The notes: generated from the letters alone by a model not told the origin. Shown: positions 18,235-56,071, counted from the first letter of the stretch. The stretch: 64,000 bases of DNA from Escherichia coli (GCF_051903065.1 NZ_CP178438.1); one strand, 5' to 3'. Made by a program: numbers and translations.

Positions 18235-18235
18235 G

Positions 18236-19239: not shown

Positions 19240-19270
19240 CAGAACACTTTCAATTTTTAACCACAGAACG

Positions 19271-19834: not shown

Positions 19835-20169
19835 ACAGTTTAACAACACACTACCGTCGCTCGCAACTGATTGCGCTTCCTGTACCGGGTGGAAAAGCGA
19901 AGGTGGAGTATTGCTATGCAGTAAATGTACCAGGTGACAGGGAAATTGTAACCCACAGCTTTGCAGAGTGGGCTGTGGGTGATTTCAACCGGCAGAAGGA
20001 GACAGTCCTTTGCGACAAGTTAACCGCTGGTTCAAAGATCACTACGGAGTGCCCGTCAGAGTCATTCGTTGGGAGCCGGAAACACAACGGGTTATCTACC
20101 TCCGTGAAGGCTATGAGCATGAGTGCTTCAGCCCGCTCGAACAGTTTCGTCGTAAATTCAGGGAAATAG
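19831..20169 (+). CDS. hypothetical protein, possibly frameshifted
   Basis: 112 aa ORF; an alternative frame (19983-20189) encodes ...[55 protein letters not shown], overlapping the next start. Confidence 0.35.
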
Positions 20170-20178
20170 AGGTCGGTC

Positions 20179-22323: not shown

Positions 22324-22342
22324 TTAAGAGGAGAAACGAAGT

Positions 22343-23140: not shown

Positions 23141-23141
23141 G

Positions 23142-24137: not shown

Positions 24138-24151
24138 TTTGGTGGAGAAAG

Positions 24152-24502
24152 TTGATGCGTGATATGTATGAAGTATTGGACCGCTGGGGAGCATGGGCTG
24201 CAGCAGAAAATAGTGGTGTGGACTGGCAGCCGATAGCGGCTGGTTTCAAGGGACTTTTACCACACGGTAAAAAGTCACGTCTCCAGTGTGATGATGATGA
24301 AGGCATCATGATAGATAGTTGTGTGGCTAGGTTGCGTAAATATAAGCCGGAAGAGTATGAGCTGATAATTGCTCACTTTGTTATCGGTATCTCATTACGC
24401 ACTATTGCGAAGAAGAGAAAATGCTCTGATGGGACTATAAGAAAAAAGTTGCAAGCTGCATTGGGATTTATTGATGCAGTTATATATATAATACATGGGT
24501 AA
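24152..24502 (+). CDS. Q: antitermination protein Q
   Basis: 116 aa, position upstream of late promoter and lysis genes; Q-family C-terminus. Confidence 0.7.
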   Translation: MMRDMYEVLDRWGAWAAAENSGVDWQPIAAGFKGLLPHGKKSRLQCDDDEGIMIDSCVARLRKYKPEEYELIIAHFVIGISLRTIAKKRKCSDGTIRKKLQAALGFIDAVIYIIHG

Positions 24503-24510
24503 TTTATTAG

Positions 24511-24529
24511 ACGGCCATATTGGCCGTCA
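24511..24529. terminator. bidirectional hairpin between Q and cargo operon
   Basis: Perfect palindrome GACGGCCA-TAT-TGGCCGTC. Confidence 0.55.
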
Positions 24530-26729: not shown

Positions 26730-26845
26730 AACAACATCCTTTTAATGGTTTTGAACAATTGGTGTTGATAATACTTCAAAAAATACTAATGCGTACGCAA
26801 AAAATACAGTACTCTGTTAAGAGTGGTTACTTCGCCACACAGCTT

Positions 26846-26875
26846 AAACCCGCCGTCGAGCGGGTTTTGTCGTTT
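26846..26875 (+). terminator. tR'-like terminator of the late leader transcript
   Basis: AAACCCGC-CGTCGA-GCGGGTTT hairpin followed by a T-rich tract, upstream of the holin gene. Confidence 0.55.
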
Positions 26876-27019
26876 CTGGGCTTTGGTATTCGTTGGGCTT
26901 GGTCTATCTAGCTCTTATCCATTGGCTCGGCTTCTTTTACGTTTCCGCTTCTGATTTGCGGTTCGTGGTACTCCCTCAATTTGCACCTCTTGTATCGGCG
27001 AGGTGAGAGATAACTACAA

Positions 27020-27346
27020 ATGCCTCATAACCCAAATACCTGGCTGGAGTTGGTCCAGAGCTGGTGGCGTGGAGACACACCGCTGGGCGCAGTGATTATG
27101 TCGATTGTTATGGCTGGTTTGCGCATTGCCTATTTTGGCGGTGGTGGTGGCTGGAAGCGAAAAACACTCGAAATTCTACTCTGTGGCGCTCTGACGCTGA
27201 CTTTTGCATCCGCTCTTGAGTATGTCGGATGGCCTAAATCGCTTTCTGTTGCCATTGGTGGTGGGGTGGGGCTGATCGGTGTCGATGCTATTCGTGGGGC
27301 TGCAATGAGAGTAATCGGTAATAAGTTTGGTGGCTCTAAGGAGTAA
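27020..27346 (+). CDS. holin
   Basis: 108 aa small membrane protein with TM segments, directly upstream of endolysin. Confidence 0.8.
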   Translation: MPHNPNTWLELVQSWWRGDTPLGAVIMSIVMAGLRIAYFGGGGGWKRKTLEILLCGALTLTFASALEYVGWPKSLSVAIGGGVGLIGVDAIRGAAMRVIGNKFGGSKE

Positions 27347-27349
27347 TTT

Positions 27350-27826
27350 ATGCAGGTACTAAATTCCCAGCGTAAAGCTTTCCTCGATATGGTGGCATGG
27401 TCAGAAGGAACGGATAACGGGCGACAACCGACACGTAACCACGGTTATGATATTATTGTTGGTGGTGAACTATTCACTGATTACTCCGATCACCCTCGCA
27501 AACTTGTCACGCTAAACCCCAAACTCAAATCAACAGCTGCAGGCCGTTATCAACTTCTTTCACGCTGGTGGGATGCTTACCGCAAGCAGCTTGGGCTGAA
27601 AGACTTCTCTCCAAAAAGCCAGGATGCTGTGGCATTGCAGCAGATTAAAGAGCGTGGCGCTTTACCGATGATTGATCGCGGCGATATTCGTCAGGCTATC
27701 GATCGTTGCAGCAATATCTGGGCTTCACTGCCGGGCGCTGGTTACGGTCAATATGAACATAAAATAGGTGACCTGATTGCCCGATTCAAAGAGGCTGGCG
27801 GGGTGGTAAATGAAGTTGAGCTATAA
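27350..27826 (+). CDS. R: endolysin (lambda R-type lytic transglycosylase)
   Basis: 158 aa, NSQRKAFLDMVAWSEGTDNGRQPTRNHGYDIIVGGELFTDYSDHPRKLV close to lambda R. Confidence 0.92.
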   Translation: MQVLNSQRKAFLDMVAWSEGTDNGRQPTRNHGYDIIVGGELFTDYSDHPRKLVTLNPKLKSTAAGRYQLLSRWWDAYRKQLGLKDFSPKSQDAVALQQIKERGALPMIDRGDIRQAIDRCSNIWASLPGAGYGQYEHKIGDLIARFKEAGGVVNEVEL

Positions 27827-28202
27827 GCTGGTTATCGCAGCATTCTTCTCTACTGTCATCGGTTCTTTCATCTGGTCTGCTAACCACTACTACAGCAAAT
27901 ATCAGCACGAAAAGAAACGTGCTGATGAGGCTGTACAAAATGCTGAATCCGCAACCGCTATTACCAATAATGTCCTGCAATCACTGCAAATCGTCAATAC
28001 AGTTCTGGAGGCTAACCAGCATGCAAAACAGCAGATCGCACTGGAGTCACAGAGAACCCAGGAAGATATCAAAGTGGCTGTTGAGAATGATGATTGCGCT
28101 TCCCGTCTTGTTCCTGCTCGTGCAACTGAGCGGCTGCGCCGGTACGCGGACAATTTACGTACCAGTTCCGGCGGTACCACTACCGGCGAACCTGACCGCT
28201 GA
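27810..28202 (+). CDS. Rz: i-spanin Rz
   Basis: 130 aa, N-terminal TM then coiled-coil; overlaps the endolysin end. Confidence 0.8.
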   Translation: MKLSYKLVIAAFFSTVIGSFIWSANHYYSKYQHEKKRADEAVQNAESATAITNNVLQSLQIVNTVLEANQHAKQQIALESQRTQEDIKVAVENDDCASRLVPARATERLRRYADNLRTSSGGTTTGEPDR

Positions 28203-28344
28203 AACCCCACAGCCAGCTATTCCTGATCCGCTGACTTACAGAGATAGTCTGGATTTAAACGTGAGCCTGCTGTCAGTGCTGGCTGCCTGTAATAGGGATA
28301 AGGCTGATATTCGTAAAATTGAAGCAGAGAAGAGTGAGCCATGA
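28087..28344 (+). CDS. Rz1: o-spanin Rz1 (lipoprotein, overlapped architecture)
   Basis: Starts within Rz in the +1 frame; signal peptide with lipobox LSGC; Pro-rich. Confidence 0.65.
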   Translation: MMIALPVLFLLVQLSGCAGTRTIYVPVPAVPLPANLTAETPQPAIPDPLTYRDSLDLNVSLLSVLAACNRDKADIRKIEAEKSEP

Positions 28345-28538
28345 AGCAGTAAAGTGGAAAGATCGCAGCAAGAAGTGCCTGTTCAGAATTAATGAAGATG
28401 CCTCAAATACCTAAAATAGCGAGTAGCCAGATGCACGTCAACTACGAGTGTGTGGCCAGCATAACGTTGTATAAACTAAGTGATAGCAGAGTTCAATATA
28501 CGTATACTGAGAGAACTATTTCTATTTGAGAACTGAAA

Positions 28539-29132
28539 ATGACGGACTATACTTTTTTTTACTGGATAGAGATGCTTCTTAAAGAAGGCAATGTTTTATT
28601 TATTGTTCTTGCTTGTTTGATTGTCTTTTTTACTTTAAAAAAAGAAATAATAATGGTTTTAGGTCGTCTTAATACAGTTAAGCTAGGTGACTATGAGATT
28701 AAATTTAAAAAAGAAATGTTTGAAATAGAATCTAAAAGTATAGAGGTTATTAAAAATTTACCTGGAACAAATCCTGTCCTGCCGACACAACTCATTGAGA
28801 ATTTCAATATTTTTGAGAGTCTTGCTAGTACTCAGCCTAATGTTGCTGTACTTTCAGCTTGGCGCGAATTGGAGTTAACCGCTATAACGCTTGCATCTAA
28901 AAAGGGGGTTGAGATCAACGGGACATCTTTAGGGCGGGCTTCAGGTATCGCTGCCTTGAAAAATGTCCAATCTGCAAACAAAATTTCTAGTGACATTGTT
29001 AAGCTTTATGAAAAAACAGGAGAGTCTATTAAGCCTATATCCCAAGGAAAGCTCTTATGTACTCAGGAAGATGCTTTGGCATTCTGTAAGAATGCAAAAA
29101 GACTTAGCAATTATTTAACATCCATATTTTAG
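28539..29132 (+). CDS. hypothetical membrane-anchored moron protein
   Basis: 197 aa, N-terminal TM helix (VLFIVLACLIVFFTL), AT-rich by eye. Confidence 0.55.
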   Translation: MTDYTFFYWIEMLLKEGNVLFIVLACLIVFFTLKKEIIMVLGRLNTVKLGDYEIKFKKEMFEIESKSIEVIKNLPGTNPVLPTQLIENFNIFESLASTQPNVAVLSAWRELELTAITLASKKGVEINGTSLGRASGIAALKNVQSANKISSDIVKLYEKTGESIKPISQGKLLCTQEDALAFCKNAKRLSNYLTSIF

Positions 29133-29174
29133 TATGTATCCATAGAGCATCCATTATTATTGGAGTAGTCGTTA

Positions 29175-29201
29175 CAGCAGGCATTCACTGAGTGCCTGCT
29201 G
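29175..29201. terminator. bidirectional hairpin between convergent moron genes
   Basis: CAGCAGGCA-loop-TGCCTGCTG inverted repeat. Confidence 0.5.
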
Positions 29202-29208
29202 CTGAACT

Positions 29209-29421
29209 CTAATAGCAAGATGGAGAATCTGCATTAAATTTTTGAGAGAGATTACTTATTTCATTCACTCCCTTATGATTAAGTAATAGCCTAATATTTT
29301 CTGGAGCCTTGAATATAAATGGGCCTTTTAGATCCTCGATGATTCCTCCTGCGACGCAGATCAAATGCTTGAAATCAACATCTTCAATTGTGGGCTTGGA
29401 GTCCAGATTATCGCTTGTCAT
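29209..29421 (-). CDS. small hypothetical protein
   Basis: 70 aa ORF convergent with the preceding moron; AT-rich. Confidence 0.4.
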   Translation of the reverse strand: MTSDNLDSKPTIEDVDFKHLICVAGGIIEDLKGPFIFKAPENIRLLLNHKGVNEISNLSQKFNADSPSCY

Positions 29422-29550
29422 TTAAAAACATCCTTTCTTGCCATTAGCAGCATTGAGCATGTTATGGAATCTGTAATTTAGGATGCTGGTACTACCAGTA
29501 CTTTTTTTGTTTCATTTTGTGAATCACCTCATTTACGAGGGGAGCCTATC

Positions 29551-29901
29551 ATGCCACCACGAACACCAAAAGCCTGCCGTGTTCGCGGCTGCCGCTCTAC
29601 AACCACAGACCCTTCAGGCTACTGCGAAAGCCACAAAAGCGAAGGCTGGAAGCAATACAAAACTGGACAATCCCGTCATCAGCGCGGCTACGGTTCGAAG
29701 TGGGACAGTATCCGCGCGCGTGTCCTGAAGCGTGACAAAGGCCTGTGTCAGTTATGTCTGCGTGCTGGTGTGGTGCGTGAGGCGAAGACCGTTGACCACA
29801 TCATCCCTAAATCGCATGGCGGCACTGATGTCGACAGTAATCTGCAGAGTTTGTGCTGGCCGTGTCATAAGGCGAAGACGGCCCGTGAACGGCTGAAGTA
29901 A
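29551..29901 (+). CDS. HNH endonuclease (terminase-associated)
   Basis: 116 aa with Cys-rich N-terminus and HNH core (VDHIIPKSHGG...CWPCH), directly upstream of the terminase genes. Confidence 0.85.
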   Translation: MPPRTPKACRVRGCRSTTTDPSGYCESHKSEGWKQYKTGQSRHQRGYGSKWDSIRARVLKRDKGLCQLCLRAGVVREAKTVDHIIPKSHGGTDVDSNLQSLCWPCHKAKTARERLK

Positions 29902-30017
29902 GAACCAGTTCCCACTGCCAGAGGGGAGGGGCGGGTCAAATCCCTGTGACCTGACGTCTTCCGGACTGCCCGCCCCATCGTTTTTTTATACCCGCGAAAA
30001 ATGAAATTTAACCAGGA

Positions 30018-30521
30018 GTGCCGCATATGGCTGGAACGGCGGGGCGTTCCGGGCGTCGCCCCAAGCCAACGGCGCGCAAGGCGCTGGCCGGAAACCCCGG
30101 CAAGCGAGCCCTGAACAAAGATGAACCTGTTTTTACGCCCATCAAAGGTGTTGAGCCACCGGAGTGGTTCGCTGAAGAGGATCTCCCTCTCGCCACGATC
30201 ATGTGGCAACTGACAACCAAAGAACTCTGCGGTCAGGGCCTGCTGTGCGTGACTGACCTAGCGGTACTTGAGCGGTGGTGCGTGGCCTATGAGTTCTGGC
30301 GACGTGCCGTGAAAAATATTGCCAAACAGGGCAACACCATCACCGGTGCAATGGGCGGTATGGTCAAAAATCCGGAGCTGACCGCCAAAAAAGAACAGGA
30401 GTCCGAGATGAGCAGTACGGGGGCAATGCTCGGACTCGACCCCAGCAGCCGCCAGCGTCTGATTGGCCTGGCGGGGAAGAAGAAAGCCACTAACCCGTTT
30501 CTGAAAATCATCGAATCATGA
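30018..30521 (+). CDS. terminase small subunit (P27 family)
   Basis: 167 aa, basic N-terminus, position between HNH and the large terminase. Confidence 0.75.
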
Positions 30522-31225
30522 GCCGGAAATCTTACCCCAACGTAAATGCTGCCAATCAGTATGCCCGGGATGTCGTGCGCGGAAAGATTGTGGCCTGCCA
30601 GTTTGTGATTCAGGCCTGCCAGCGCCATCTTGATGACCTGATGGCGGAAAAAAGTAAGTCGTTTCGTTACCGCTTCGACAAGGACCTGGCTGAACGGGCC
30701 GCCAAATTTATTCAGCTGTTGCCGCACACCAAGGGTGAGTGGGCATTCAAGAGGATGCCCATCACGCTGGAGCCGTGGCAGCTCTTTGTGATCTGCTGCG
30801 CGTTTGGCTGGGTCAATAAAGGCTCCCGGCTGCGCCGCTTCCGTGAGGTGTATACCGAAATCCCCCGTAAGAACGGCAAATCGGCAATCTCTGCCGGTGT
30901 CGCCCTGTATTGTTTTGCCTGTGATAACGAGTTTGGCGCGGAAGTGTATTCCGGTGCCACGACAGAGAAACAGGCGTGGGAAGTCTTTCGCCCGGCGCGA
31001 CTGATGTGTAAACGCACACCCATGCTGACGGAAGCGTTCGGGATTGAGGTTAACGCCTCAAACATGAACCGTCCGGAGGATGGCGCGCGGTTTGAACCGC
31101 TGATCGGTAACCCCGGTGATGGATCATCACCCCACTGTGCGGTGGTGGATGAATATCACGAGCACGCCACCGATGCGCTTTACACCACGATGCTTACCGG
31201 GATGGGGCGCGACGTCAGCCACTGA
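30518..31225 (+). CDS. terminase large subunit, N-terminal fragment (ATPase), ends at a frameshift
   Basis: Walker B-like VVDEYHEH; reading frame terminates after ...[10 protein letters not shown]. Confidence 0.85.
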
Positions 31226-41812: not shown

Positions 41813-42045
41813 CAGAGAAAGTTAGCCTGGATAATTTAAGTGTTATTGAAGAGTCTAAACTAGAGCTCGTTTCTGCGGTGCGTTACTCTGCTCAGTATGT
41901 TCCTATGTTTACTCTGACGCTGGACAAAAAAGAAATTACCATGCCTAAAAATACGGTAATATTTCCATTTGCCAGCGATGAAACAGCTAAGTATTTAAAT
42001 GAACAACAGCAAAAGTATAAAGATTCGTTGTTTCTGACTCGCTAA
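41806..42045 (+). CDS. small AT-rich hypothetical protein within tail cluster
   Basis: 79 aa ORF followed by an intrinsic terminator. Confidence 0.4.
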   Translation: MVAEKVSLDNLSVIEESKLELVSAVRYSAQYVPMFTLTLDKKEITMPKNTVIFPFASDETAKYLNEQQQKYKDSLFLTR

Positions 42046-42065
42046 TTAATAAAATTCATTACAAG

Positions 42066-42092
42066 GCCACCTTCTAATAGGTGGCTTTTTTA
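42066..42092 (+). terminator. intrinsic terminator
   Basis: GCCACCT-loop-AGGTGGC hairpin followed by TTTTTT. Confidence 0.7.
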
Positions 42093-42100
42093 TTTTCGGA

Positions 42101-43435
42101 GTGTATATGACGTGGAAAGACAGGCTTCAGGATGCGTCATTTCGAGGTGTGCCGTTTAAGGTTGAAGAAGAAAGTGCGGGAACCGGCCGTCGTGTGGAAA
42201 CACACGAATATCCGAACCGCGACAAACCCTATACCGAAGATCTGGGAAAAGTCACTTTCCGCCCGTCCATCACGGCTTATGTGGTGGGAGATGACTGCTT
42301 TGACCAGCGCGATCGCCTGATTGACGCGCTGAATAAACCCGGTCCCGGCACGCTTGTCCACCCGACATACGGTGAGTTGAAAGTCTGTGTTGACGGGGAA
42401 GTTCGGGTCAGCACATCGAAGAGTGAAGGGCGTATTGTCCGCTTTGACCTGAAGTTTGTCGAAGCGGGAGATCTCTCTTACCCCACATCAGGCGTGGCGA
42501 CGGCGCAGACGCTGATGTCATCCTGTTCTGCACTGGATGACTGCATCAGTGACAGCTTCAGCGGTTTCAGTATCGATGGCGTGGCGGATTTTGTGCAGAA
42601 CGACGTTATCGGTAATGCCAGCACAATGCTTGGGTATGTTTCTGATGCGATGAAAGTGGTGGATTCTGCCGTATCGGATGCCGCCAGGCTGTTGCAGGGT
42701 GATATCTCGGTACTTCTGCCGCCGCCATCGTCAGGCAAAAATTTCGTTGAGCAGGTGCAGAAAATGTGGCGTACCGGGAAACGCCTTTATGGTAACGCCA
42801 GCGACCTGGTCACCATGATCAAAACGCTTTCCGGTGTCAGCCTCGGCAGCGATCTGCAACCGCGCGGCGTCTGGAAAACGGACAGTAAAACCACCGCCAC
42901 GGCGACGCAGCAGCGTAACGTGGTTGCCAGCACCCTTCGTACGACCGCAATCAGCGAAGCGGCGTATGCCGTCATCCGATTGCCTGCGCCAACAACTTCC
43001 GCGGTGATGCAGAATGCCACAGTGGGGCAGGCAACAACACCCGCGCAGAGCACTGGCTGGCCTTCCGTCACGCATCCGGCACTGAACAATGCACCGGCGG
43101 TGAAAAACACGGTTGACCTGCCGACGTGGGAAGAACTGACTGACATTCGCGACACACTGAATACGGCAATTGATAAGGAGTTGTCCCGTACAACCAGCGA
43201 TGCGCTGTTTCTGGCGCTGCGCCGGGTGAAAGCAGATCTGAATGCGGATATCAACACGCGCCTTGAACAGTCTGCACGGATCATTCAGCGCACACCGGAT
43301 GAGGTTTTACCCGCGCTGGTGCTGGCGGCGACCTGGTTTGATAACGCGGCGCGTGACGCGGACATTATCCGGCGTAATGCCATTACGCATCCCGGCTTTG
43401 TGCCGGTGATCCCTCTGAAGGTGCCAGTGCAATGA
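42101..43435 (+). CDS. DNA circulation protein (Mu gpN-like)
   Basis: 444 aa, N-terminal WKDRLQDASFRGVPF motif. Confidence 0.75.
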   Translation: MYMTWKDRLQDASFRGVPFKVEEESAGTGRRVETHEYPNRDKPYTEDLGKVTFRPSITAYVVGDDCFDQRDRLIDALNKPGPGTLVHPTYGELKVCVDGEVRVSTSKSEGRIVRFDLKFVEAGDLSYPTSGVATAQTLMSSCSALDDCISDSFSGFSIDGVADFVQNDVIGNASTMLGYVSDAMKVVDSAVSDAARLLQGDISVLLPPPSSGKNFVEQVQKMWRTGKRLYGNASDLVTMIKTLSGVSLGSDLQPRGVWKTDSKTTATATQQRNVVASTLRTTAISEAAYAVIRLPAPTTSAVMQNATVGQATTPAQSTGWPSVTHPALNNAPAVKNTVDLPTWEELTDIRDTLNTAIDKELSRTTSDALFLALRRVKADLNADINTRLEQSARIIQRTPDEVLPALVLAATWFDNAARDADIIRRNAITHPGFVPVIPLKVPVQ

Positions 43436-44511
43436 ACGACAATGTCACGCTACGGGTAAATGGCCGGGAGTGGAATGGCTGGACATCGGTGCGCATCGGT
43501 GCCGGTATTGAACGGTTGGCGCGGGATTTCAGTGTGGAGATCACCCGCCAGTGGCCGGGTGATGAGGGTATTACCACGCTTCAGCCGCGCATTAAAAACG
43601 GTTCAAAAGTGGAGGTGCTGATTGGTGATGAGCTGGTGATCACCGGCTGGGTGGAGGCGACGCCCGTTCGTTACGATGCCCGTTCGGTCAGCACCGGTAT
43701 TGCCGGACGTAGTCTGACGGCTGACCTGATTGACTGTGCAGCCGAACCGACACAGTTTAACGGACGATCACTGGTACAGATTGCGCAGGCGCTTGCTGCG
43801 CCCTTCGGCATTGAGGTGGTGAACAGCAGTGCGCCGTCGGGTGTTATTCCTGATGTCCAGCCTGATCACGGTGAAACGGTGATCGAGGTGATTAACAAAA
43901 TACTCGGTCAGCAGCAGGCGCTGGCTTATGACGACCCGCACGGCAGGCTGGTGATTGGCGGTATTGGCTCAACGCGGGCACATACCGCGCTGGTACTCGG
44001 GGAAAACATCCTTTCCTGCGATACGGAGAAGAGTATCCGGGAGCGATTTTCTGTTTACCAGGTGGCGGGGCAGCGTGCCGGAAACGACGATGATTTCGGT
44101 GAGGCCACCACCACCGCGCTGCGGGCCCGCACAGAGGACGCATTTATTGCCCGTTACCGTCCGATGTATATCAGGCAGACAGGGCAGGCTACGGGGGCAG
44201 GTTGTATTGCCCGTGCGGACTTTGAAGCCCGACAACGGGCGGCGCGGACGGATGAAACCACCTATGTGGTGCAGGGCTGGCGACAGGGTAACGGTACGCT
44301 GTGGCAGCCCAACCAGCGGGTGATTGTCTTTGATCCGGTCTGTGGTTTCGACAATACCGAACTGCTTGTCTCGGAAGTCACGTTTACTCAGGACCAGAAT
44401 GGCACCCTGACGGAAATCCGTGTCGGCCCACCTGATGCTTATCTGCCTGAACCCGAAGCCCCCGGCGCGCGGAAAAAGAAAAAAGCCAGAGTACAGGAGG
44501 ACCCGTTCTGA
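43432..44511 (+). CDS. baseplate hub protein (Mu gpP / late control gene D-like)
   Basis: 359 aa in baseplate block. Confidence 0.7.
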   Translation: MNDNVTLRVNGREWNGWTSVRIGAGIERLARDFSVEITRQWPGDEGITTLQPRIKNGSKVEVLIGDELVITGWVEATPVRYDARSVSTGIAGRSLTADLIDCAAEPTQFNGRSLVQIAQALAAPFGIEVVNSSAPSGVIPDVQPDHGETVIEVINKILGQQQALAYDDPHGRLVIGGIGSTRAHTALVLGENILSCDTEKSIRERFSVYQVAGQRAGNDDDFGEATTTALRARTEDAFIARYRPMYIRQTGQATGAGCIARADFEARQRAARTDETTYVVQGWRQGNGTLWQPNQRVIVFDPVCGFDNTELLVSEVTFTQDQNGTLTEIRVGPPDAYLPEPEAPGARKKKKARVQEDPF

Positions 44512-45059
44512 TGAAGGCGATTGAAACCATACAGCGACAACTCCTCGGCCTGATTGGGCGGGCGGTGGTGAAAAGCATCAGTGCCGCCACGAAATGTCAG
44601 ACCGTGGATGTGTCCCTGATTGCCGGTGAACCCAAAGCCGGGGTTGAACATCTTGAACCCTACGGTTTTACCGCAAGGGCAAACAGCGGTGCGGAAGCGG
44701 TGGTGTTGTTTCCGGATGGTGACCGTTCTCATGCGGTGGTTGTTACGGTGTCGGACCGGCGCTACCGCCTGAAAGGGCTGCAGACGGGTGAGGTGGCTGT
44801 CTATGACGATCAGGGGCAGTCCGTGACGCTGACCCGGGCGGGGATCGTGGTGGACGGTGCAGGGAAAACGATCACGTTTCGCAATGCGCCTAAGGCTCGT
44901 TTTGAAATGGACCTGGAAGTGACCGGACAGGTGAAAGACCTGTGCGACTCCAGCGGCACCACCATGTCAGCGATGAGGCTTGCCTATAACGGGCATCGTC
45001 ACAGAGAGAACGGTCAGGGCAGTAACACCGACAAACCTGATAAAGCGATGGAGGCATGA
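44511..45059 (+). CDS. baseplate spike / assembly protein V
   Basis: 182 aa gpV-like. Confidence 0.7.
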   Translation: MKAIETIQRQLLGLIGRAVVKSISAATKCQTVDVSLIAGEPKAGVEHLEPYGFTARANSGAEAVVLFPDGDRSHAVVVTVSDRRYRLKGLQTGEVAVYDDQGQSVTLTRAGIVVDGAGKTITFRNAPKARFEMDLEVTGQVKDLCDSSGTTMSAMRLAYNGHRHRENGQGSNTDKPDKAMEA

Positions 45060-45484
45060 TGGAACTGTGGCTGACGGTGAACGGTAAACGCACCTGCGCC
45101 AGCGCACCGCTGGATCCGCTGACCCGTGCCGTGGTGATTTCCATGTTCACCTGGCGGCGGGCTGAACCTGATGACAATGCCGACGTCCCGATGGGATGGT
45201 GGGGGGATACCTGGCCTGCGGTACAGAATGACCGTTACGGCTCCCGACTGTGGCTGCTTCAGCGCAGCAAACTGACCAATCAGCTGGTGCAGACGGTAAG
45301 GGGGTATATCCGCGAATGCCTGCAATGGATGATTGATGATGGCGTGGTGTCCCGTATTGATCTGGATATCCGCCGCACCGGGATTAATGAACTGGGTAAC
45401 AGTATCACTCTCTGGCGTCGTGACGGACCGGTAATGATTTCTTTTGATGATCTGTGGAGTGCGATAACGCATGGCGGACAGTGA
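45056..45484 (+). CDS. baseplate protein (Mu gp46 / gpW-like)
   Basis: 142 aa. Confidence 0.6.
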   Translation: MMELWLTVNGKRTCASAPLDPLTRAVVISMFTWRRAEPDDNADVPMGWWGDTWPAVQNDRYGSRLWLLQRSKLTNQLVQTVRGYIRECLQWMIDDGVVSRIDLDIRRTGINELGNSITLWRRDGPVMISFDDLWSAITHGGQ

Positions 45485-46529
45485 ATTTCAGCGTCCGACG
45501 CTGGCAGAAAATATCAGTATGCTCCGTAACGATTTATTCGCCAGGCTGGATGTCAGCGACACGCTCCGGCGCATGGATGAAGACGTGCGGGCAATGGTGT
45601 ATGCGGCGGCGCTGCATACGGTTTACGGGTACATCGATTATCTGGCAATGAACATGCTGCCTGACCTGTGCGATGAGTCCTGGCTGGCGCGACATGCTGC
45701 GATGAAACGGTGTCCGCGCAAGGGGGCCACGGCTGCCAGCGGGTATATGCGCTGGGAAGGTGTCAGCGATGGCCTGAAGGTGACCGCCGGGAGTGTTATT
45801 CAGCGCGATGACCTGGTGCAGTACACGGCAACTGCCGATGCAACCAGCTCCGGTGGTGTCCTGCGCGTGCCGATCGCCTGCTCAAGTGCAGGCGCGGTCG
45901 GTAACGCTGACGACGGTACGGCATTAATCCTGGTCACGCCGGTGAATGGTCTGCCGTCTTCCGGTGTGGCTGACACCCTGACAGGCGGATTTGATACTGA
46001 AGAGCTGGAAACGTGGCGCGCCCGCGTCATTGAGCGGTATTACTGGACGCCGCAGGGCGGGGCTGACGGGGACTATGTCGTCTGGGCTAAAGAAGTGCCC
46101 GGCATTACCCGCGCATGGACATACCGTCACTGGATGGGAACGGGGACTGTCGGTGTGATGATTGCCAGCAGCGACCTGATTAATCCCATTCCGGAAGAAT
46201 CAACGGAAACGGCGGCAAGACAACATATCGGGCCACTGGCTCCGGTGGCAGGCTCTGATTTGTATGTGTTCAGGCCGGTGGCACATACGGTGGATTTTCA
46301 TATCCGCGTTACGCCGGATACACCGGAAATACGAGCCGCCATCACCGCGGAGTTGCGTTCGTTCCTGTTGCGTGATGGTTATCCGCAGGGAGAACTGAAG
46401 GTATCGCGTATCAGTGAGGCGATTTCCGGTGCAAACGGGGAATACAGCCATCAGTTGCTTGCACCGGCGGACAATATCTCCATTGCAAAAAATGAACTGG
46501 CGGTTCTGGGGACGATTTCATGGACGTGA
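45471..46529 (+). CDS. baseplate J-like protein
   Basis: 352 aa. Confidence 0.7.
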
Positions 46530-47104
46530 CAAACGATGATTACATCCGTCTGTTGTCGGCACTGTTGCCCCCCGGTCCGGCGTGGTCAGCCAGCGATCCG
46601 GCGATTGCCGGTGCGGCACCTTCATTAACTCGTGCTCATCAGCGTGCGGATGCCCTGATGCGGGAGCTGGATCCGCGCACCACCACTGAACTGATAAACC
46701 GCTGGGAGCGTCTGTGCGGTCTGCCGGATGAATGTATTCCCGCAGGGACACAGACCCTTCGCCAGCGTCAGCAACGGCTGGATGCGAAGGTTAACCTGGC
46801 GGGCGGCATCAACGAGGATTTTTATCTTGCACAGCTTGCTGTCCTGGGCAGACCAGATGCCACCATCACGCGATACGACAAAAGCACGTTCACCTGCTCA
46901 TCGGCCTGTACTGACGCTGTGAACGCGCCTGAATGGCGGTATTACTGGCAGGTCAACATGCCAGCCGCCACCAACACCACCTGGATGACATGTGGCGATC
47001 CCTGTGATTCCGCACTGCGTATCTGGGGCGACACAGTTGTCGAATGTGTGCTTAACAAACTCTGCCCGTCGCATACCTACGTAATTTTTAAATATCCGGA
47101 GTAA
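46520..47104 (+). CDS. DUF2313 / YmfQ-like tail protein
   Basis: 194 aa, position before the tail fibre. Confidence 0.6.
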
Positions 47105-47107
47105 TCC

Positions 47108-47833
47108 ATGCATCGTATAGACACGAAAACCGCGCAGAAGGATAAGTTCGGCGCGGGTAAGAACGGTTTTACCCGTGGTAACCCCCAGACCGGCACGCCT
47201 GCCACCGATCTGGATGATGACTACTTTGACATGTTGCAGGAGGAGCTTTGCAGCGTTGTGGAGGCGTCCGGTGCCAGCCTGGAGAAGGGGCGGCACGACC
47301 AGCTACTTACCGCGCTTCGCGCGCTGCTGTTAAGCCGCAAGAATCCGTTTGGCGATATCAAATCGGATGGCACGGTGAAAACGGCTCTCGAAAACCTTGG
47401 TTTGGGGGAAGGCTCTGCGTTGCCCGTTGGTGTACCTGTTCCGTGGCCCTCAGCCACACCGCCAGCAGGGTGGCTGAAATGTAACGGCGCAGCATTTTCT
47501 TCTGAAATGTACCCCAATCTGGCAAAGGCTTATCCTACAAATAAATTACCGGATTTACGCGGTGAGTTTATTCGTGGCTGGGATGATGGGCGTGGAGTGG
47601 ATAGTGGGCGCGCGTTATTATCAACTCAAACAGATGAATTTAAATCACATAGTCATTATTTCGAAAGAACATGGGCACAAACTGGATTTGATACAACAGG
47701 TGGATATTATCTTTTAGCCGCTGATGTTTCTGGCTCAGTAAATCAACAGAGATCCGATAGCACTAACTCGGTGGGGGGGAGAGAATCTCGCCCTCGTAAT
47801 ATTGCATTTAACTATATTGTGAGAGCTGTGTAA
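47108..47833 (+). CDS. tail fibre protein (constant N-terminus plus invertible C-terminal part)
   Basis: 241 aa; inversion crossover site lies within the gene at ~47388-47412. Confidence 0.75.
47388..47412. repeat. inversion crossover site (gix/pix-like), left
   Basis: AAACCTTGGTTTGGG core, inverted relative to the site at 49295-49319. Confidence 0.65.
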
Positions 47834-48435
47834 TGGATAATGCTGTATTAAATAGCGAACATATTGCTACGAAGGCTGGAAATGTTACTGTTTATAACTT
47901 TGACGGTGAAACGCGAGAGTATATTTCCCCATCTATTGAATATATTGCCGTTGGTGTCGGTATTCCGGCATATTCATGTTTAGATGCTCCTGCCACACGT
48001 AAAGATGGTTATGCAATTTGCCGTTCTGCAGATTTTAACTCATGGGAATATGTGCCAGACCATCGCGGTGAAACGGTCTATAGCACTGAAACAGGAGAAT
48101 CAAAAGAAATCACAGCTCCGGGTGATTACCCTGAAAATACAACCACTATCTCCCCATTAACGCCATACGATAAATGGGATGGTGAGAAATGGGTGACCGA
48201 TACTGAAGCACAGCATAGCGCCGCAGTAGACGCGGCAGAAGCACAGCGCCAGTCACTGATTAATGCTGCAATGGCTTCCATTAGTCTGATTCAGCTGAAA
48301 TTACAGGCCGGACGGAAACTGACGCAGGCAGAAACAACCCGGCTTAACGCTGTGCTGGATTACATTGACGCGGTGATGGCAACAGATACCAGCACCGCGC
48401 CGAATGTCATCTGGCCTGAACTGCCGGAGGCGTAG
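47833..48435 (+). CDS. tail fibre assembly protein
   Basis: 200 aa, conserved C-terminus ...IDAVMATDTSTAPNVIWPELPEA. Confidence 0.8.
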   Translation: MDNAVLNSEHIATKAGNVTVYNFDGETREYISPSIEYIAVGVGIPAYSCLDAPATRKDGYAICRSADFNSWEYVPDHRGETVYSTETGESKEITAPGDYPENTTTISPLTPYDKWDGEKWVTDTEAQHSAAVDAAEAQRQSLINAAMASISLIQLKLQAGRKLTQAETTRLNAVLDYIDAVMATDTSTAPNVIWPELPEA

Positions 48436-48850
48436 GCCATTCAATATCTGGAGCACTGGAGGGATCAACCAGTTCCAGTGCGTCCAGATAATCCAGCCAT
48501 AAATTATATTGTTCCAGCTCGTCACCTTTCAGACGACCAATAGCAGCTTTGCCAGGCCACTGATGGGTATTGATGTAGGTATTGGCTTCTGAAACCAAAG
48601 ATATTTTTTTCATTTCAGCCGTCAATACCTCATCCTCTTTTGAAGGTGGTGGGGAATTAATCCATACTGGCCGTCCTGAACTGTCAGCGCCAATTTCTTT
48701 CCCTTCTGGATGCAGCCCAAGAAATTGCTCATATATTTCTCTGGTAATTTCAATAACATCATCAGGAAGCGTTCCCGCATCCTCATATTCTGGAAATAAT
48801 TCTTGCAGATAAAAACTTTTACTTCCGGGTGAAAAGAATACTGAGTTCAT
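48407..48850 (-). CDS. tail fibre assembly protein (alternative, inverted orientation)
   Basis: 147 aa with analogous C-terminus ...DPSSAPDIEWPTPP. Confidence 0.8.
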   Translation of the reverse strand: MNSVFFSPGSKSFYLQELFPEYEDAGTLPDDVIEITREIYEQFLGLHPEGKEIGADSSGRPVWINSPPPSKEDEVLTAEMKKISLVSEANTYINTHQWPGKAAIGRLKGDELEQYNLWLDYLDALELVDPSSAPDIEWPTPPAVQAR

Positions 48851-48852
48851 TC

Positions 48853-49347
48853 TTACCGTCCAATGATTAACGCTGATACGCTGGTATCTGAAGGAAAGGC
48901 TGCATTCAGTGGTTTGTCGACTTTGAACACAATCGTATTATTCCCCCTGACAGCGGCAAAAGAACAAGCCGCCGTCGCGTATGAACCTGTAATATTACTG
49001 GATACACCACCATAAGCTGTTGTTGATACCAGAGGGATAACGCCCAGCACCTTATTAGGAAATACAAAGGGCAATGTGGCTGTGGCAATATAAGACTTAT
49101 TAGAGCCTGTAATGGCATAAGCATTATCAGTCATTCCATTCATCGCCACTGGACCGCTTATACTTACAGTAACCATCTGAATGATTAGCCCGTCAGGTTG
49201 ACGAATCACAAAATTTCCATTGCCACCAGTAACCGTCCAGAAAGACATATCAGGGATTTGGTTTTCCCCGTTGCCCACATTCCGTTTTGCCGCTTCTCCC
49301 AAACCAACGTTTATGAAAATGCAGAAATAACGAGCAAATGGCATCAT
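48853..49347 (-). CDS. alternative tail fibre C-terminal segment (silent orientation)
   Basis: 164 aa Gly/Ser/Thr-rich fibre-tip-like ORF lacking its own N-terminal constant part. Confidence 0.6.
   Translation of the reverse strand: MMPFARYFCIFINVGLGEAAKRNVGNGENQIPDMSFWTVTGGNGNFVIRQPDGLIIQMVTVSISGPVAMNGMTDNAYAITGSNKSYIATATLPFVFPNKVLGVIPLVSTTAYGGVSSNITGSYATAACSFAAVRGNNTIVFKVDKPLNAAFPSDTSVSALIIGR
49295..49319. repeat. inversion crossover site (gix/pix-like), right
   Basis: CCCAAACCAACGTTT, reverse complement of the left-site core. Confidence 0.65.
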
Positions 49348-49373
49348 TCCTGCTTTTGTCAGGGAGATCTACC

Positions 49374-49928
49374 ATGCTTATTGGCTATGTACGTGTGTCA
49401 ACAAATGACCAGAACACAGATCTACAACGTAATGCGCTGAACTGTGCAGGATGCGAGCTGATTTTTGAAGACAAGATAAGCGGTACAAAGTCCGAAAGGC
49501 CGGGACTGAAAAAACTGCTCAGGACATTATCGGCAGGTGACACTCTGGTTGTCTGGAAGCTGGATCGGCTAGGGCGTAGTATGCGGCATCTGGTCATTCT
49601 GGTTGAGGAGTTGCGCGAACGTGGCGTTAATTTTCGCAGCCTGACGGATGCTATTGATACCAGCACACCGATGGGGCGTTTTTTCTTTCATGTGATGGGT
49701 GCCCTGGCTGAAATGGAACGAGAACTGATTGTTGAACGAACAAAAGCTGGACTGGAAGCTGCTCGCGCACAGGGACGAATTGGTGGACGTCGTCCCAAAC
49801 TTACACCAGAACAATGGGCGCAGGCCGGGCGATTAATTGCATCAGGCGTTCCTCGCCAGAAGGTGGCGATCATCTATGATGTTGGTATATCGACACTGTA
49901 TAAGAAGTTTCCGGTCGGAGATAAATGA
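49374..49928 (+). CDS. serine DNA invertase (Gin/Pin/Hin family)
   Basis: MLIGYVRVSTNDQNTDLQRNAL... with C-terminal HTH; adjacent to the invertible segment. Confidence 0.92.
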   Translation: MLIGYVRVSTNDQNTDLQRNALNCAGCELIFEDKISGTKSERPGLKKLLRTLSAGDTLVVWKLDRLGRSMRHLVILVEELRERGVNFRSLTDAIDTSTPMGRFFFHVMGALAEMERELIVERTKAGLEAARAQGRIGGRRPKLTPEQWAQAGRLIASGVPRQKVAIIYDVGISTLYKKFPVGDK

Positions 49929-49969
49929 AACCGTAGCACGTCGTATGCAAGATCGTGCTGCGGTTTATG
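49927..49969. repeat. hairpin-containing direct repeat, copy 1
   Basis: AAACCGTAGCACGTCGTATGCAAGATCGTGCTGCGG, imperfect copy of 50946-50987. Confidence 0.6.
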
Positions 49970-49985
49970 CTTATCACTTAAAGAC

Positions 49986-50855
<870 letters not shown>

Positions 50856-50945
50856 CTAATCCTTTGAATTTACATAGTAAAAAAGATACTTTTCCTCATA
50901 GTGTGAGCTAATTTTATGTTTCGTTTGATGATCGGACCGGTCTCA

Positions 50946-50987
50946 AAAACCGCAGGCACGTTGTATGCAAGAACGTGCTGTGGCTGG
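50946..50987. repeat. hairpin-containing direct repeat, copy 2
   Basis: AAACCGCAGGCACGTTGTATGCAAGAACGTGCTGTGG with 7-bp stem GCACGTT/AACGTGC. Confidence 0.6.
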
Positions 50988-51318
50988 CTGGTGAACTTCC
51001 AATAGTGCGAATATTGAATGATTTCTATCTGTTATAGATTTTACCGTATTTCGGCATGAATGAAACTGAATATCCTCCCACCGATTCTCCATGACTTTAC
51101 GCCACTGTCTCTAGGGCTGCTATGTGCCAGAGGCGGACGTTGTTAAAATAGAAAATATCCCAACCTTGTATGAGTCGTGCAATAATTTCGAACTTTATAC
51201 AAAGCTTTGGTTGTAAAGGTGTATAACCACAAGTGACATTAATCACATTTGTAAAGGCAAAATGCAACAAACTGAATTAGTTAATTGCGTAAATTTGAAG
51301 TTATGTTAAGGTGGTGAT

Positions 51319-51451
51319 GGTTTATGGGCAGATTTTGGGTCGCGTTTCGCGATCAGTGAAAAAAATGTCCGATAGGATTGCCTTTCAGGATCTCATGTTC
51401 CTCGCATTTCTTAAGGTTCTTGTCAAGTTTGCGTAAGAGTGCCCATAAACC
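51319..51451 (+). ncRNA. retron msr-msd non-coding RNA (a1/a2 bounded)
   Basis: 12-bp perfect inverted repeats GGTTTATGGGCA (51319-51330) and TGCCCATAAACC (51440-51451), the latter ~20 nt upstream of the RT start. Confidence 0.6.
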
Positions 51452-51470
51452 CTTTTAGAGGCGATCTAAA

Positions 51471-53306
51471 GTGAAACGACTACAATCATTAAAAGAAGCA
51501 AAAACAAAACCAGACTTGGCTAAGCTATTAGGAATCAAACCTTCAGCGTTAACATACTGCCTATATGTATTAAAACCTGAAAATCAATACACACAGTTTA
51601 AGATACCAAAAAAAAATGGCGGCGAACGGATAATAAGTGCACCTAACGGAATATTAAAGACGATACAGTCATCCTTATCAAGACTGCTTCTAGATTGCTT
51701 AGACGAAATAGTTTGCATTAAGTTTCCAGACTCAGAGTTAGCAAGGCAGAAAGCAAAAAACTCAAAAATATTAAAGTTAAAATGTTCCAACTCAGAAATC
51801 AAACAACCCTCACTGTCTCATGGATTTGAAAGAAAGCGTTCAATTATTACAAATGCAATGATGCACTTGGGGAAAAAATATGTTTTTAATATAGACTTGG
51901 ATAATTTTTTCGGCAGTTTTAACTTTGGTAGAGTCCGAGGTTTTTTCATAAAAAATAGAAACTTTGCACTCGATCCGGAAATCGCAACTGTAATTGCTAA
52001 AATTGCGTGCTACAACAATGAACTACCCCAAGGCAGCCCATGCTCCCCAGTAATCACTAATCTAATCACTCACTCGTTAGACATTAAACTGGCAGCGATT
52101 GCATCAAGAAACTCATCCACTTTTACAAGATATGCTGATGATATTACATTCTCTACGAGGAAGGGGGAGTTTCCTTCTGCTATAGCAAAAAATCAAAATG
52201 GTAAATATATCGTTAGTAAGAAAATTAGGGGCGAGATAACTCGCTCAGGTTTTATAATTAATGATGGGAAGACAAGAAATCAGTATAAAGACTCGAGGCA
52301 AGATGTAACAGGCTTAGTGGTTAATAAAAAGCCAAACACGAAAAAAGAATATTGGAGGCTTGTGCGTGCGCAATGTGACCATTTATTTAAACATGGTGAG
52401 TTCTTAGAGGTGATTGACGGCAAGGAAATAAAGGGGAATGTTAATAGCCTTGCAGGCAAACTTAACTTCATAGACCAAGTTGACCACTATAATAGATTGC
52501 GTCAAGGCGAAAAATTAAATCCAAAATATCACTTAAAAAAAGATGCCAATAAAAATGGCCATGCCAAAAAAAGGCGTTACTTACATAGTTCTAGAGAAAA
52601 AACGTTTAGTGAGTTTCTCTTCTATCGTTTATTTTATGGCAATGAATTACCAACAATTCTTACGGAAGGTAAAACTGACAATATTTATCTGAAGGCAGCA
52701 ATACATAAGTTAGCCTCATCATTCCCTAATTTGGCGGTCGCTGAAAGTCCAGGGCTCTCTTATAAGCCACGGACTAAATTTGTTAACTACAATGAGCGGA
52801 CAAAATATTTACTTGAACTTTATGGTGGTGCTGATTATTTAAAGGATTTTGTTATTCATTATAAACAACACTTTAATCGTTATAAGGCTCCCAAACCATC
52901 TAATCCAGTAATTATACTTGTTGATAATGATAGCGGACCAAAAGATCTGATTAATTACGTTAGTAAAGTTGATAATATTGGTATTTTCCCCACAGGTGTT
53001 CCAGATATCCGCGCCTCTGAGTTTGTACATATTTTTTGTAATCTTTATTTAGTGCTTACCCCTCAAGTTAAGGGATATACAGGAACTGATATAGAGCATT
53101 TTTTTAAAGATACAGATCGACTTAGACCACATAAAGGTAAGTTTTTCAATACAGTCTCTAAGCGTGATCATGATAATGATTTGAGCAAGGAATCTTTCGC
53201 AACTCATATTGTTCATGCCCACAAGCATGAAATTGATTTTAGTGGATTTACAAGCCTGTTAGAACGGTTAGTAAAAGTCATAAATCACTTTGACACTGTT
53301 AAGTAA
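51471..53306 (+). CDS. retron reverse transcriptase fused to a C-terminal Toprim domain
   Basis: RT motifs (NGGERIISAP, LPQGSPCSP, YADD in TRYADDITFS); C-terminal Toprim-like TEGKTD and VDNDSGP; 611 aa. Confidence 0.85.
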   Translation: MKRLQSLKEAKTKPDLAKLLGIKPSALTYCLYVLKPENQYTQFKIPKKNGGERIISAPNGILKTIQSSLSRLLLDCLDEIVCIKFPDSELARQKAKNSKILKLKCSNSEIKQPSLSHGFERKRSIITNAMMHLGKKYVFNIDLDNFFGSFNFGRVRGFFIKNRNFALDPEIATVIAKIACYNNELPQGSPCSPVITNLITHSLDIKLAAIASRNSSTFTRYADDITFSTRKGEFPSAIAKNQNGKYIVSKKIRGEITRSGFIINDGKTRNQYKDSRQDVTGLVVNKKPNTKKEYWRLVRAQCDHLFKHGEFLEVIDGKEIKGNVNSLAGKLNFIDQVDHYNRLRQGEKLNPKYHLKKDANKNGHAKKRRYLHSSREKTFSEFLFYRLFYGNELPTILTEGKTDNIYLKAAIHKLASSFPNLAVAESPGLSYKPRTKFVNYNERTKYLLELYGGADYLKDFVIHYKQHFNRYKAPKPSNPVIILVDNDSGPKDLINYVSKVDNIGIFPTGVPDIRASEFVHIFCNLYLVLTPQVKGYTGTDIEHFFKDTDRLRPHKGKFFNTVSKRDHDNDLSKESFATHIVHAHKHEIDFSGFTSLLERLVKVINHFDTVK

Positions 53307-53365
53307 TATTATGATGCGCACTGATTATTCCTTATTCAGCTAAAATTTCTGGTAATGACTCCAAC

Positions 53366-53869
53366 TTATTGATAGTGTTTTATGTTCAGATAATGCCCGA
53401 TGACTTTGTCATGCAGCTCCACCGATTTTGAGAACGACAGCGACTTCCGTCCCAGCCGTGCCAGGTGCTGCCTCAGATTCAGGTTATGCCGCTCAATTCG
53501 CTGCGTATATCGCTTGCTGATTACGTGCAGCTTTCCCTTCAGGCGGGATTCATACAGCGGCCAGCCATCCGTCATCCATATCACCACGTCAAAGGGTGAC
53601 AGCAGGCTCATAAGACGCCCCAGCGTCGCCATAGTGCGTTCACCGAATACGTGCGCAACAACCGTCTTCCGGAGCCTGTCATACGCGTAAAACAGCCAGC
53701 GCTGGCGCGATTTAGCCCCGACATAGCCCCACTGTTCGTCCATTTCCGCGCAGACGATGACGTCACTGCCCGGCTGTATGCGCGAGGTTACCGACTGCGG
53801 CCTGAGTTTTTTAAGTGACGTAAAATCGTGTTGAGGCCAACGCCCATAATGCGGGCTGTTGCCCGGCAT
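53366..53869 (-). CDS. insB: IS1 transposase InsB
   Basis: 167 aa ORF within IS1. Confidence 0.9.
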
Positions 53870-54063
53870 CCAACGCCATTCATGGCCATATCAATGATTT
53901 TCTGGTGCGTACCGGGTTGAGAAGCGGTGTAAGTGAACTGCAGTTGCCATGTTTTACGGCAGTGAGAGCAGAGATAGCGCTGATGTCCGGCGGTGCTTTT
54001 GCCGTTACGCACCACCCCGTCAGTAGCTGAACAGGAGGGACAGCTGATAGAAACAGAAGCCAC
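53788..54063 (-). CDS. insA: IS1 protein InsA
   Basis: 91 aa [42 protein letters not shown]. Confidence 0.9.
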
Positions 54064-54382
54064 TGGAGCACCTCAAAAACACCATCATACACTAAATCAG
54101 TAAGTTGGCAGCATCACCCCCTTTTCGTATATGCTAACCGTGAGCGGGAGTGAACAAGTCACCATAGCCAGGAACACTAGCGGCGTAATTCTTAAGCTGA
54201 GTGGCATTTCACCTGCGGTTTATCAGTGCATTCATAGTACCTTCATCAGCCAGATTGAACGAGTCAGCTTAGAATTTGCTGGCGAGGTTGTCACTATGAA
54301 GCATGAGAGTTACCTCAATGTTTATATAAGGATTCGGTCCCCATACCTGGAACGGTAACTCTCAATCTGATCGGTTCCTGAG

Positions 54383-56071
54383 TCAGTTCAAATCACGACT
54401 CATTTTTTTCGCTCTCACCGGCATCCCATTTGCCACAAAATATCCCGCCGTGCTCCTCGGCAACGCTCCCTGTCCACGAATCATGTCCGCTATTTTCTCG
54501 CCAATCATAATTGTCGTGGCGTTCAAATTCCCGGTGATAATCTGCGGCATAATTGACGCATCCACCACGCGCAGGCCTTCCAGCCCATGCACGCGGCCTT
54601 CGCCGTCAACCACTGCCATCTCGTCATAACCCATTTTGCAGGTACCGCACGGGTGGAAGGCGGTTTCGGCGTGGTTACGCACGAACTCATCGAGTTGCTC
54701 ATCCGTCTGACATTCCGTGCCGGGGCTGATTTCGCGGCCACGATACTGATCCAGCGCCGGTTGATGCATGATCTCGCGGGTGATGCGAATTGCGTCGCGG
54801 AACTCCTGCCAGTCCTGCTCGTGCGACATGTAGTTAAACAGAATCGCCGGATGCTGGTGCGGGTCGCGGGATTTAATCCGCACATGCCCACGGCTTGGCG
54901 AGCGCATCGATCCGACGTGGCACTGGAAGCCGTGCTCTTTCACTGCATTCGAGCCGTTATAGTTAATCGCTACCGGCAGGAAGTGATACTGAATATTCGG
55001 CCACGCAAATTCCTCTCGGCTGCGAATAAATCCGCCTGCTTCAAAGTGGTTGCTGGCACCAACGCCGGTGCCGCCAAACAGCCACTCCGCACCGATTTTC
55101 GGCTGATTCCACCACTGCAGGGCAGGGTAGAGGGAAACCGGTTCTTTGCACTCATATTGCAGATACATCTCCAGATGATCCTGAAGATTTTCACCGACGC
55201 CGGGTAAATCATGCACCAGCGGAATATCAAACTCCGCCAGCAGTTCAGCGCTACCCACGCCGGAACGTTGCAGGATCTGCGGAGAGGCGATCGCACCTGC
55301 ACATAACAGCACCTCTTTATTCGCTGTCGCGCGGGTTGGAATGGTGCTGTCGCCTTCCTGCCACTCGACGCCCACCGCGCGTTTGCCGTCAAAAATGATG
55401 TGATCGGTCATAGCGCGAGTACGAATGGTCAGGTTAGGGCGCGATTTGGCCTGATCGAGATAGCCGCGCGCGGTACTGGCGCGACGGCCCTGCGGCGTGA
55501 CGGTGCGATCCATCGGACCAAAACCTTCCTGCTGATAACCGTTGAGATCGTCCGTGCGCGGGTAGCCCGCCTGCACGCCCGCTTCAATCATCGCTTCAAA
55601 CAGCGGATTGACGCCGGGTTTGGAGGTAGTGACGCTCACCGGGCCATCGCCACCGTGGTAGTCGTTCTCGCCCACATCGCGAGTCTCGGCCTTGCGGTAG
55701 TAGGGCAGGCAGTCGAGATAACTCCAGTTCTCCAGACCGGGTTCTTGCGCCCAGTTATCGAGATCCAGCGCATTGCCACGGATGTAGCACATGCCGTTGA
55801 TCAGCGACGATCCACCCAGACCTTTACCGCGTCCGCACTCCATGCGGCGGTTATTCATAAACGGTTCAGGTTCCGTTTCATAGGCCCAGTTGTAGCGTTT
55901 ACCCTGTAGCGGGAATGCCAGGGCAGCGGGCATCTGGGTGCGGAAGTCAAAGCGATAGTCCGGGCCGCCCGCTTCAAGCAGCAGCACGGAGGTATTCGGA
56001 TCTTCAGTCAGACGGGTAGCGAGAACGTTGCCGGCTGAGCCGGCACCAATAATGATGTAGTCAAATTGCAA
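54383..56071 (-). CDS. betA: choline dehydrogenase
   Basis: GMC oxidoreductase with FAD motif [11 protein letters not shown]; start appears to be TTG with AGGAGG RBS. Confidence 0.9.

Follow-up and report, generated by a model that had tools for sequence, protein, structure and literature searches.

The window analysed here, a stretch of 64,000 nucleotides of Escherichia coli DNA, raises the question of how a prophage integrated at thrW came to end in an IS1 element with betA directly beyond it. The preliminary description had read this arrangement as the product of an IS1-mediated deletion or rearrangement and not of a simple insertion. Between 52800 and 54900 the window is 100% identical to two chromosomes, those of the human faecal isolates E. 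coli 23CRST031 (NZ_AP045800.1, reverse strand) and 23CRST027 from Ecuador; the gene names used here are those of the PGAP annotation of the identical record NZ_AP045800.1 (Table 1). This annotation places dinB, yafP, pepD, gpt, frsA, crl, phoE, proB, proA and thrW to the left of the prophage. To the right of the IS1 it places a 264-bp spacer, then betA, which presents its stop-codon end (54383) to the IS1, and betB and betI on the same minus strand, betT on the plus strand, pdeL and the yah genes. The order and orientation of both flanks are colinear with K-12 (proBA-thrW, then betA, betB, betI and betT). A further IS1A, annotated as frameshifted, lies just left of window position 1 (NZ_AP045800.1 3310635-3311331), where it interrupts rayT; it is opposite in orientation to the junction IS1, with which it could recombine to invert the whole window, and rayT is intact in strain ECNB21-M121.

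Table 1. Features of the thrW-betA region, in window coordinates
Feature	Position	Strand	Basis and remarks
thrW (tRNA-Thr CGU)	12904..12979	+	ARAGORN; last 46 bp (12934-12979) form the attL core
SfV/e14-like prophage, right end truncated	12980..53350		PGAP annotation, compared with EC7 and 2014C-3075
Retron Ec67-family reverse transcriptase/endonuclease gene, intact, 611 codons	51471..53306	+	ORF list, RVT_1 match, PGAP product name
Retron-cassette tail remnant, 44 bp; new junction at 53350/53351	53307..53350	+	Alignment with EC7 and H6, which continue ACTGTAGTCCCAAC...
IS1A, 768 bp	53351-54118	-	Ends, Pfam, PGAP; IRR left (prophage side), IRL right (betA side)
insB'	53366-53869	-	DDE_Tnp_IS1 (PF03400 2.3e-78)
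insA	53788-54063	-	Zn_ribbon_InsA and HTH_Tnp_IS1 (PF03811 1.3e-21, PF12759 4.7e-31)
A6C slippery motif	53806-53814	GTTTTTTAA plus strand, TTAAAAAAC minus strand	-1 frameshift site joining insA and insB'
CCCTTTTCG, one remaining copy of the original 9-bp IS1 target	54119..54127		GDSC2227PM and TUM13064
Chromosomal backbone, last 264 bp of the ipbA-betA spacer	54119..54382		Relatives' sequence
betA (choline dehydrogenase), intact	54383..56071	-	ORF list and PGAP; followed by betB, betI and betT in K-12 order and orientation

We identified the element at the junction as a complete IS1, at exactly the position and size first reported for it, beginning 44 bp past the stop of the retron reverse transcriptase (RT) gene. 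IS1 is about 768 bp long with imperfect terminal inverted repeats of about 23 bp, and this copy measures 768 bp and has canonical ends, GGTAATGACTCCAACTTATTGATAG... on the left and ...CAGTAAGTTGGCAGCATCACC on the right, the reverse complement of the latter being GGTGATGCTGCCAACTTACTGATTT. PGAP calls it IS1A with a programmed frameshift. The 9-mers on its two sides do differ, as had been noted: AAAATTTCT stands at 53342-53350 and CCCTTTTCG at 54119-54127, so there is no 9-bp target duplication. The unmatched flanks indicate that the present surroundings of the IS1 did not arise from one insertion event; they are no argument against the element being IS1.

The prophage is about 40 kb long, with its integrase directly beside thrW, an HK97-type head, a Mu-like contractile tail, a pinE invertase, a GIY-YIG gene and the retron. 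Its terS (small terminase), rusA, lexA-like gene and ymfQ are annotated as frameshifted in the public record, a sign either that a grounded prophage is decaying or that homopolymers were misread in sequencing. Upstream of the RT gene lies a perfect 12-nt inverted repeat, GGTTTATGGGCA/TGCCCATAAACC, at 51319-51330 and 51440-51451, with 109 nt between the arms and ending 20 bp before the RT start; this is presumably where the a1/a2 stems bounding a retron msr-msd are to be expected. Rfam matched no family in 50000-54600, a range that includes this repeat. Strain H6 carries a 99.6% identical retron cassette (L009 9001-11260; window 51120-53380) in an unrelated lambdoid prophage at ynfB-rspAB, between a DUF977 gene and hokD, suggesting that the cassette moves between prophage types. 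The right boundary of the cassette common to H6 and the relatives of the window lies only about 30 bp past the IS1 breakpoint. The same retron tail adjoins a second, divergent IS1 in TUM2820 (L004 9580-11290), where the junction lies 26 bp nearer the RT stop, indicating that this short, AT-rich tail has been hit by IS1 independently; the 5' half of the TUM2820 RT is cut off by yet another IS1.

Comparison with relatives defined what has been lost on the prophage side. The relatives were 18 genomes containing at least 91% of a 2.45-kb retron-cassette query. In EC7 and 2014C-3075 the retron lies in the same kind of thrW prophage, with 99.9-100% identity through the retron, and the sequence runs through ...GCTAAAATTTCT, continues as ACTGTAGTCCCAAC... 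and reaches, after 287 bp, ATTCGTAATGCGAAGGTCGTAGGTTCGACTCCTATTATCGGCACCA. The latter is a 46-bp copy of the thrW 3' end and constitutes attR in these two genomes. In the window, IS1 takes the place of all sequence beyond AAAATTTCT; attR and the final 287 bp of prophage DNA are gone, and the left flank of the IS1 is the prophage arm 333 bp short of the attR end. The initial statement that no partial thrW 3' end is available as attR held under closer searching: with exact k-mers of 11-20 nt, no stretch of 12 nt or more of thrW and its flanks (12860-13040) occurred a second time in the window, and the 26-nt thrW 3' end has thrW itself as its sole match in the window with three mismatches allowed. 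The window thus contains no attL/attR direct-repeat pair such as relatives have, nor was a thrW-derived attR, which had been considered as a finding that would tell against a deletion, found beside the region within the window.

The DNA that normally follows attR is absent as well. In EC7, attR and betA are separated by about 31 kb, in line with the tens of kilobases cited earlier for the distance between the thrW locus and betA, and this interval holds yagP', paoABCD, yagU, ykgJ, ecpRABCDE, ykgL/O/M/R, fdeC, an HTH gene, rclABC, rclR, ykgEFG and ykgH. The attR-betA interval of genomes with the hyx/ipbA island is a few kilobases longer than that of EC7. We searched for the missing interval, as the preliminary description had proposed, with a composite query made of a 1,440-bp retron anchor, which puts the strain at the top of the list, and six 240-bp probes (paoC, ecpC, ykgM/O, fdeC, rclA and ykgF). 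None of the six probes was found in the NZ_AP045800.1 or NZ_AP045789.1 chromosomes, where the query matched one place only, the anchor; as controls, EC7 gave seven places and the median genome six. All six probes are missing in about 132 of 5,426 genomes, making complete loss of the interval uncommon, not unique. Because the probes are absent and the flanks lie in K-12 order and orientation, we conclude that the interval is truly deleted, and not inverted or translocated within the chromosome. The junction has the form of an adjacent deletion, in that the other flank of the IS1 is DNA that is normally distant, on the same side and in the same orientation, with the intervening DNA absent. Given the position of attR in relatives, 287 bp past the breakpoint, and the absence of the interval, the reading of this locus as an IS1-mediated event rather than a simple insertion stands, and it is close to certain that some IS1-mediated deletion occurred.

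IS1 elements also border other losses in this part of the chromosome. In GDSC2227PM (L003 63-1635) an IS1 joins a prophage tail-fibre-assembly gene to a truncated rclC, and in TUM2820 (L004 17277-18384) an IS1B abuts a truncated rclC. These junctions are further independent IS1-bounded deletions within the thrW-betA interval.

On the betA side, the preliminary description had allowed that the 264 bp next to the IS1 might prove to be phage-derived. This is ruled out: the segment is chromosomal backbone, and the 302 bp from 54119 adjoin betA in 4,213 genomes, at full length in 1,588 of them. Positions 54119-54294 are specific to ipbA/hyx-island genomes and the sequence from 54295 onward is present in K-12 too, K-12-type genomes without the island matching only there. 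A 75-codon ORF at 54131-54358 has no Pfam match, is unannotated in every record viewed and is probably no gene.

The site at which this IS1 originally inserted can be recognized in GDSC2227PM (100% identical), where it is uninterrupted and lies within an AT-rich spacer of roughly 1 kb between ipbA (fimX) and betA. There the sequence reads ...gttacaagaa/cccttttcg..., or ...GTTACAAGAA/CCCTTTTCGTATATGC..., and the right flank of the IS1 continues this spacer from exactly CCCTTTTCG; it is therefore the native flank of the insertion site. TUM13064, which belongs to an unrelated lineage and carries a different IS1 variant, shows the mirror junction, ...ACAAGAACCCTTTTCG/GGTAATGAC (L010 5300-5330 and 6080-6100), that is, ...CCCTTTTCG/IS1, in the same orientation. 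In this genome the right side is deleted up to pdeL, so that betABIT is lost and the IS1 abuts DNA upstream of pdeL. Taken together, the half-junctions of the window and TUM13064 allow a canonical insertion with a 9-bp duplication of CCCTTTTCG to be reconstructed for an ancestor that was not itself observed: this IS1 with both native flanks and the target duplication is absent among the 5,426 genomes, and only TUM13064 has the left half-junction. IS1 elements occur elsewhere in the same spacer in COL60J (at about +271 bp) and GN04530 (+209 bp). The ipbA-betA spacer is prone to IS1 insertion, and CCCTTTTCG looks like a true hot spot for it. The TUM13064 IS1 (L010 5322-6089) is a mosaic, its IRR-side third resembling the divergent variant of TUM2820 and most of its IRL-side half being identical to IS1A, which fits past recombination between IS1 variants.

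The order of events could be approached through ECNB21-M121, which shares the IS1/CCCTTTTCG-betA junction but whose IS1 is instead flanked on the left by the end of a DLP12-like lysis cassette (rzpD). Over 4,082 bp of bet DNA this strain differs from the window by about one base, the next best genome reaching 99.0%, and accession numbers are shared for the proA, proB, phoE, dinB, yafL, betA, betB, betI, betT, pdeL and yah proteins. ECNB21-M121 is of the same chromosomal lineage as the 23CRST strains. Its thrW prophage is of the same type but differs in its early genes and carries an autotransporter at the position of the retron, and it keeps attR (L012 6970-6995). The attR is followed by a P4-like integrase island, IS903B, a DLP12-like fragment and the IS1, about 18.4 kb in total. 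All six interval probes are absent from ECNB21-M121.

The IRL/betA junction is older than the split of ECNB21-M121 and the 23CRST strains, since it is common to strains whose left flanks differ, and the IRR/prophage junction arose afterwards, in the 23CRST strains alone. Loss of the canonical interval probably also predates the strain split, and the interval was probably lost in more than one step; as ECNB21-M121 lacks it too, the canonical interval may have been lost earlier, in a separate event. The last step removed the prophage end and attR together with a further stretch, which would be about 18 kb of island DNA if the ancestor resembled ECNB21-M121 and 31-37 kb if it carried the standard interval.

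As to mechanism, we consider a one-ended IS1 "adjacent" deletion from the IRR end the more probable course, ahead of recombination between two IS1 copies, and we infer a single-step origin for the prophage-side junction. The starting point would have been an ordinary transposition of IS1A into CCCTTTTCG, within the AT-rich spacer between ipbA and betA. Later, the resident IS1A would have undergone an intramolecular, abortive transposition leading to a one-ended deletion, with its IRR end becoming linked to a new target, AAAATTTCT/ACTGTAG, which lies 44 bp past the end of the retron RT gene. All DNA from this target to the IS1 would have been lost, and with it the 46-bp attR and the terminal 287 bp of prophage sequence, while IS1A and its IRL/betA junction stayed put, leaving two flanks that no longer match. 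The fixed IRL junction and variable IRR flanks in two sister strains fit such a deletion. Experimentally derived deletions of 11-66 kb start exactly at the IRR of IS1A, have variable far ends and are credited to an abortive-transposition model (PMC10569738); the match of the observed pattern to these counts for the one-ended route.

The same product, identical in sequence, would result if a second IS1 in the same orientation had inserted at AAAATTTCT in the right arm of the prophage and RecA-dependent IS1-IS1 recombination had then deleted the interval. We regard this as a possible course, though a less probable one. It would yield exactly the junction seen, the long-term evolution experiment documents it for deletions involving IS1 and IS150 (PMC4173774), and copies are plentiful, an IS1-containing query matching 37 places in the source genome record. 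The insertion of another IS1 variant 26 bp away in the retron tail of TUM2820 indicates that the site can be targeted. That events of the two-copy type do occur at the bet locus is indicated by GN04530, whose bet operon is flanked by IS1 copies, and by TUM13064, a relative of GN04530 that has lost the operon and retains a single IS1. Against this, the intermediate, in which an IS1 at AAAATTTCT would be followed on the right by the retained prophage arm, is found in none of the 5,426 genomes, and the route needs two events here plus a separate pair for the left flank of ECNB21-M121, where one-ended deletion needs one each. One partial match for the intermediate, in CU532-9, proved to be an IS1B at the unrelated sit/icd locus. 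The junction IS1 and the betA-side IS1 of ECNB21-M121 are identical over 768 of 768 bases, so they offer no informative polymorphism on chimerism.

Two further explanations would dispense with a deletion altogether. Inversion or translocation between IS1 copies, with the interval and attR moved elsewhere rather than lost, would also give mismatched flanks, and the IS1 copy immediately outside the window on the left is inverted; with both flanks oriented as in K-12 and the six probes without a match in either chromosome record, we consider it very improbable. A multi-copy 768-bp repeat is likewise a classic cause of misjoined assemblies, and a collapsed IS1 could have linked unrelated contig ends. 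Such an artefact is scarcely credible here: the 2.1-kb junction is 100% identical in two separately deposited complete genomes, 23CRST031 and 23CRST027, both of whose chromosomes lack the six probes, the flanks are colinear with the standard map, and the betA-side junction occurs independently in ECNB21-M121.

The prophage keeps attL and an intact integrase gene; lacking attR, it is predicted to be incapable of excision by Int/Xis, and the retron would thereby be fixed in the chromosome. The deletion explains the absent right boundary of the thrW prophage, which prophage finders that depend on att repeats will mis-call. The lineage lacks the common pilus (ecp), the FdeC adhesin, Rcl, PaoABC, YkgEFG and the YkgM/O ribosomal paralogues. 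We found no paper on this particular junction, which is present in public genome records. IS1-anchored deletion is an ordinary and already well-understood type of event in E. coli; the locus adds one more natural case of an IS1-bounded deletion of tens of kilobases, a process already shown experimentally, and its importance is small outside the annotation of the source strain. A broader reading, which we hold to be unlikely, is that the IS1 at CCCTTTTCG acts as a long-lived, recurrent generator of deletions at a real hot spot, and that loss of attR was possibly favoured because it fixes a prophage bearing an anti-phage retron. For the hot spot, this reading draws on the independent use of the same 9-bp target, in the same orientation, by another IS1 variant in an unrelated lineage. 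If true, loss of attR would represent selected domestication of defence cargo and not neutral decay.

Deletions adjacent to IS1 are classically known (Reif & Saedler 1975, cited in PMC10569738), and large chromosomal deletions next to IS1A and IS1X2 were described in the nfsB region of clinical E. coli by Wan et al. 2023 (PMC10569738). Like the deletion studied here, those span tens of kilobases and begin exactly at the end of an IS1, there also the IRR of IS1A; in both cases the IS1 remains in place between a fixed junction and a variable far end, with no target duplication across it. They differ in that the present deletion is deduced from comparative genomics and was not seen arising from a known parent, and in that its far end lies in a prophage arm with attR removed, in what may be a second event at the same IS1. 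In the long-term evolution experiment, most IS-associated deletions were assigned to recombination between IS copies, and they include the loss of rbs next to IS150 (Raeside et al. 2014, PMC4173774). There, as here, a resident IS beside a dispensable region repeatedly yields deletions that leave a single IS; however, a second IS copy is involved there, whereas no such intermediate was found here, and the family at rbs is IS150.

The prophage itself can be compared with CP4-6 of K-12, which also occupies thrW, is unable to leave and has kept cargo genes. CP4-6 is a P4-like element unrelated to the SfV/e14-like phage of the window, where int and attL persist and the prophage is held in place by a defined loss of attR that IS1 bounds. 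Phages of the SfV type that integrate at thrW have a 46-bp attP core identical to the thrW 3' end and carry cargo genes beside attP. The window resembles them in having its integrase adjoin thrW and in having relatives with the 46-bp core repeat, and the attR-proximal cargo slot holds the retron here and the autotransporter in ECNB21-M121. The prophage is a putative member of the SfV group, and differs in that no sequenced phage in the phage collection matched its retron and right-arm region.
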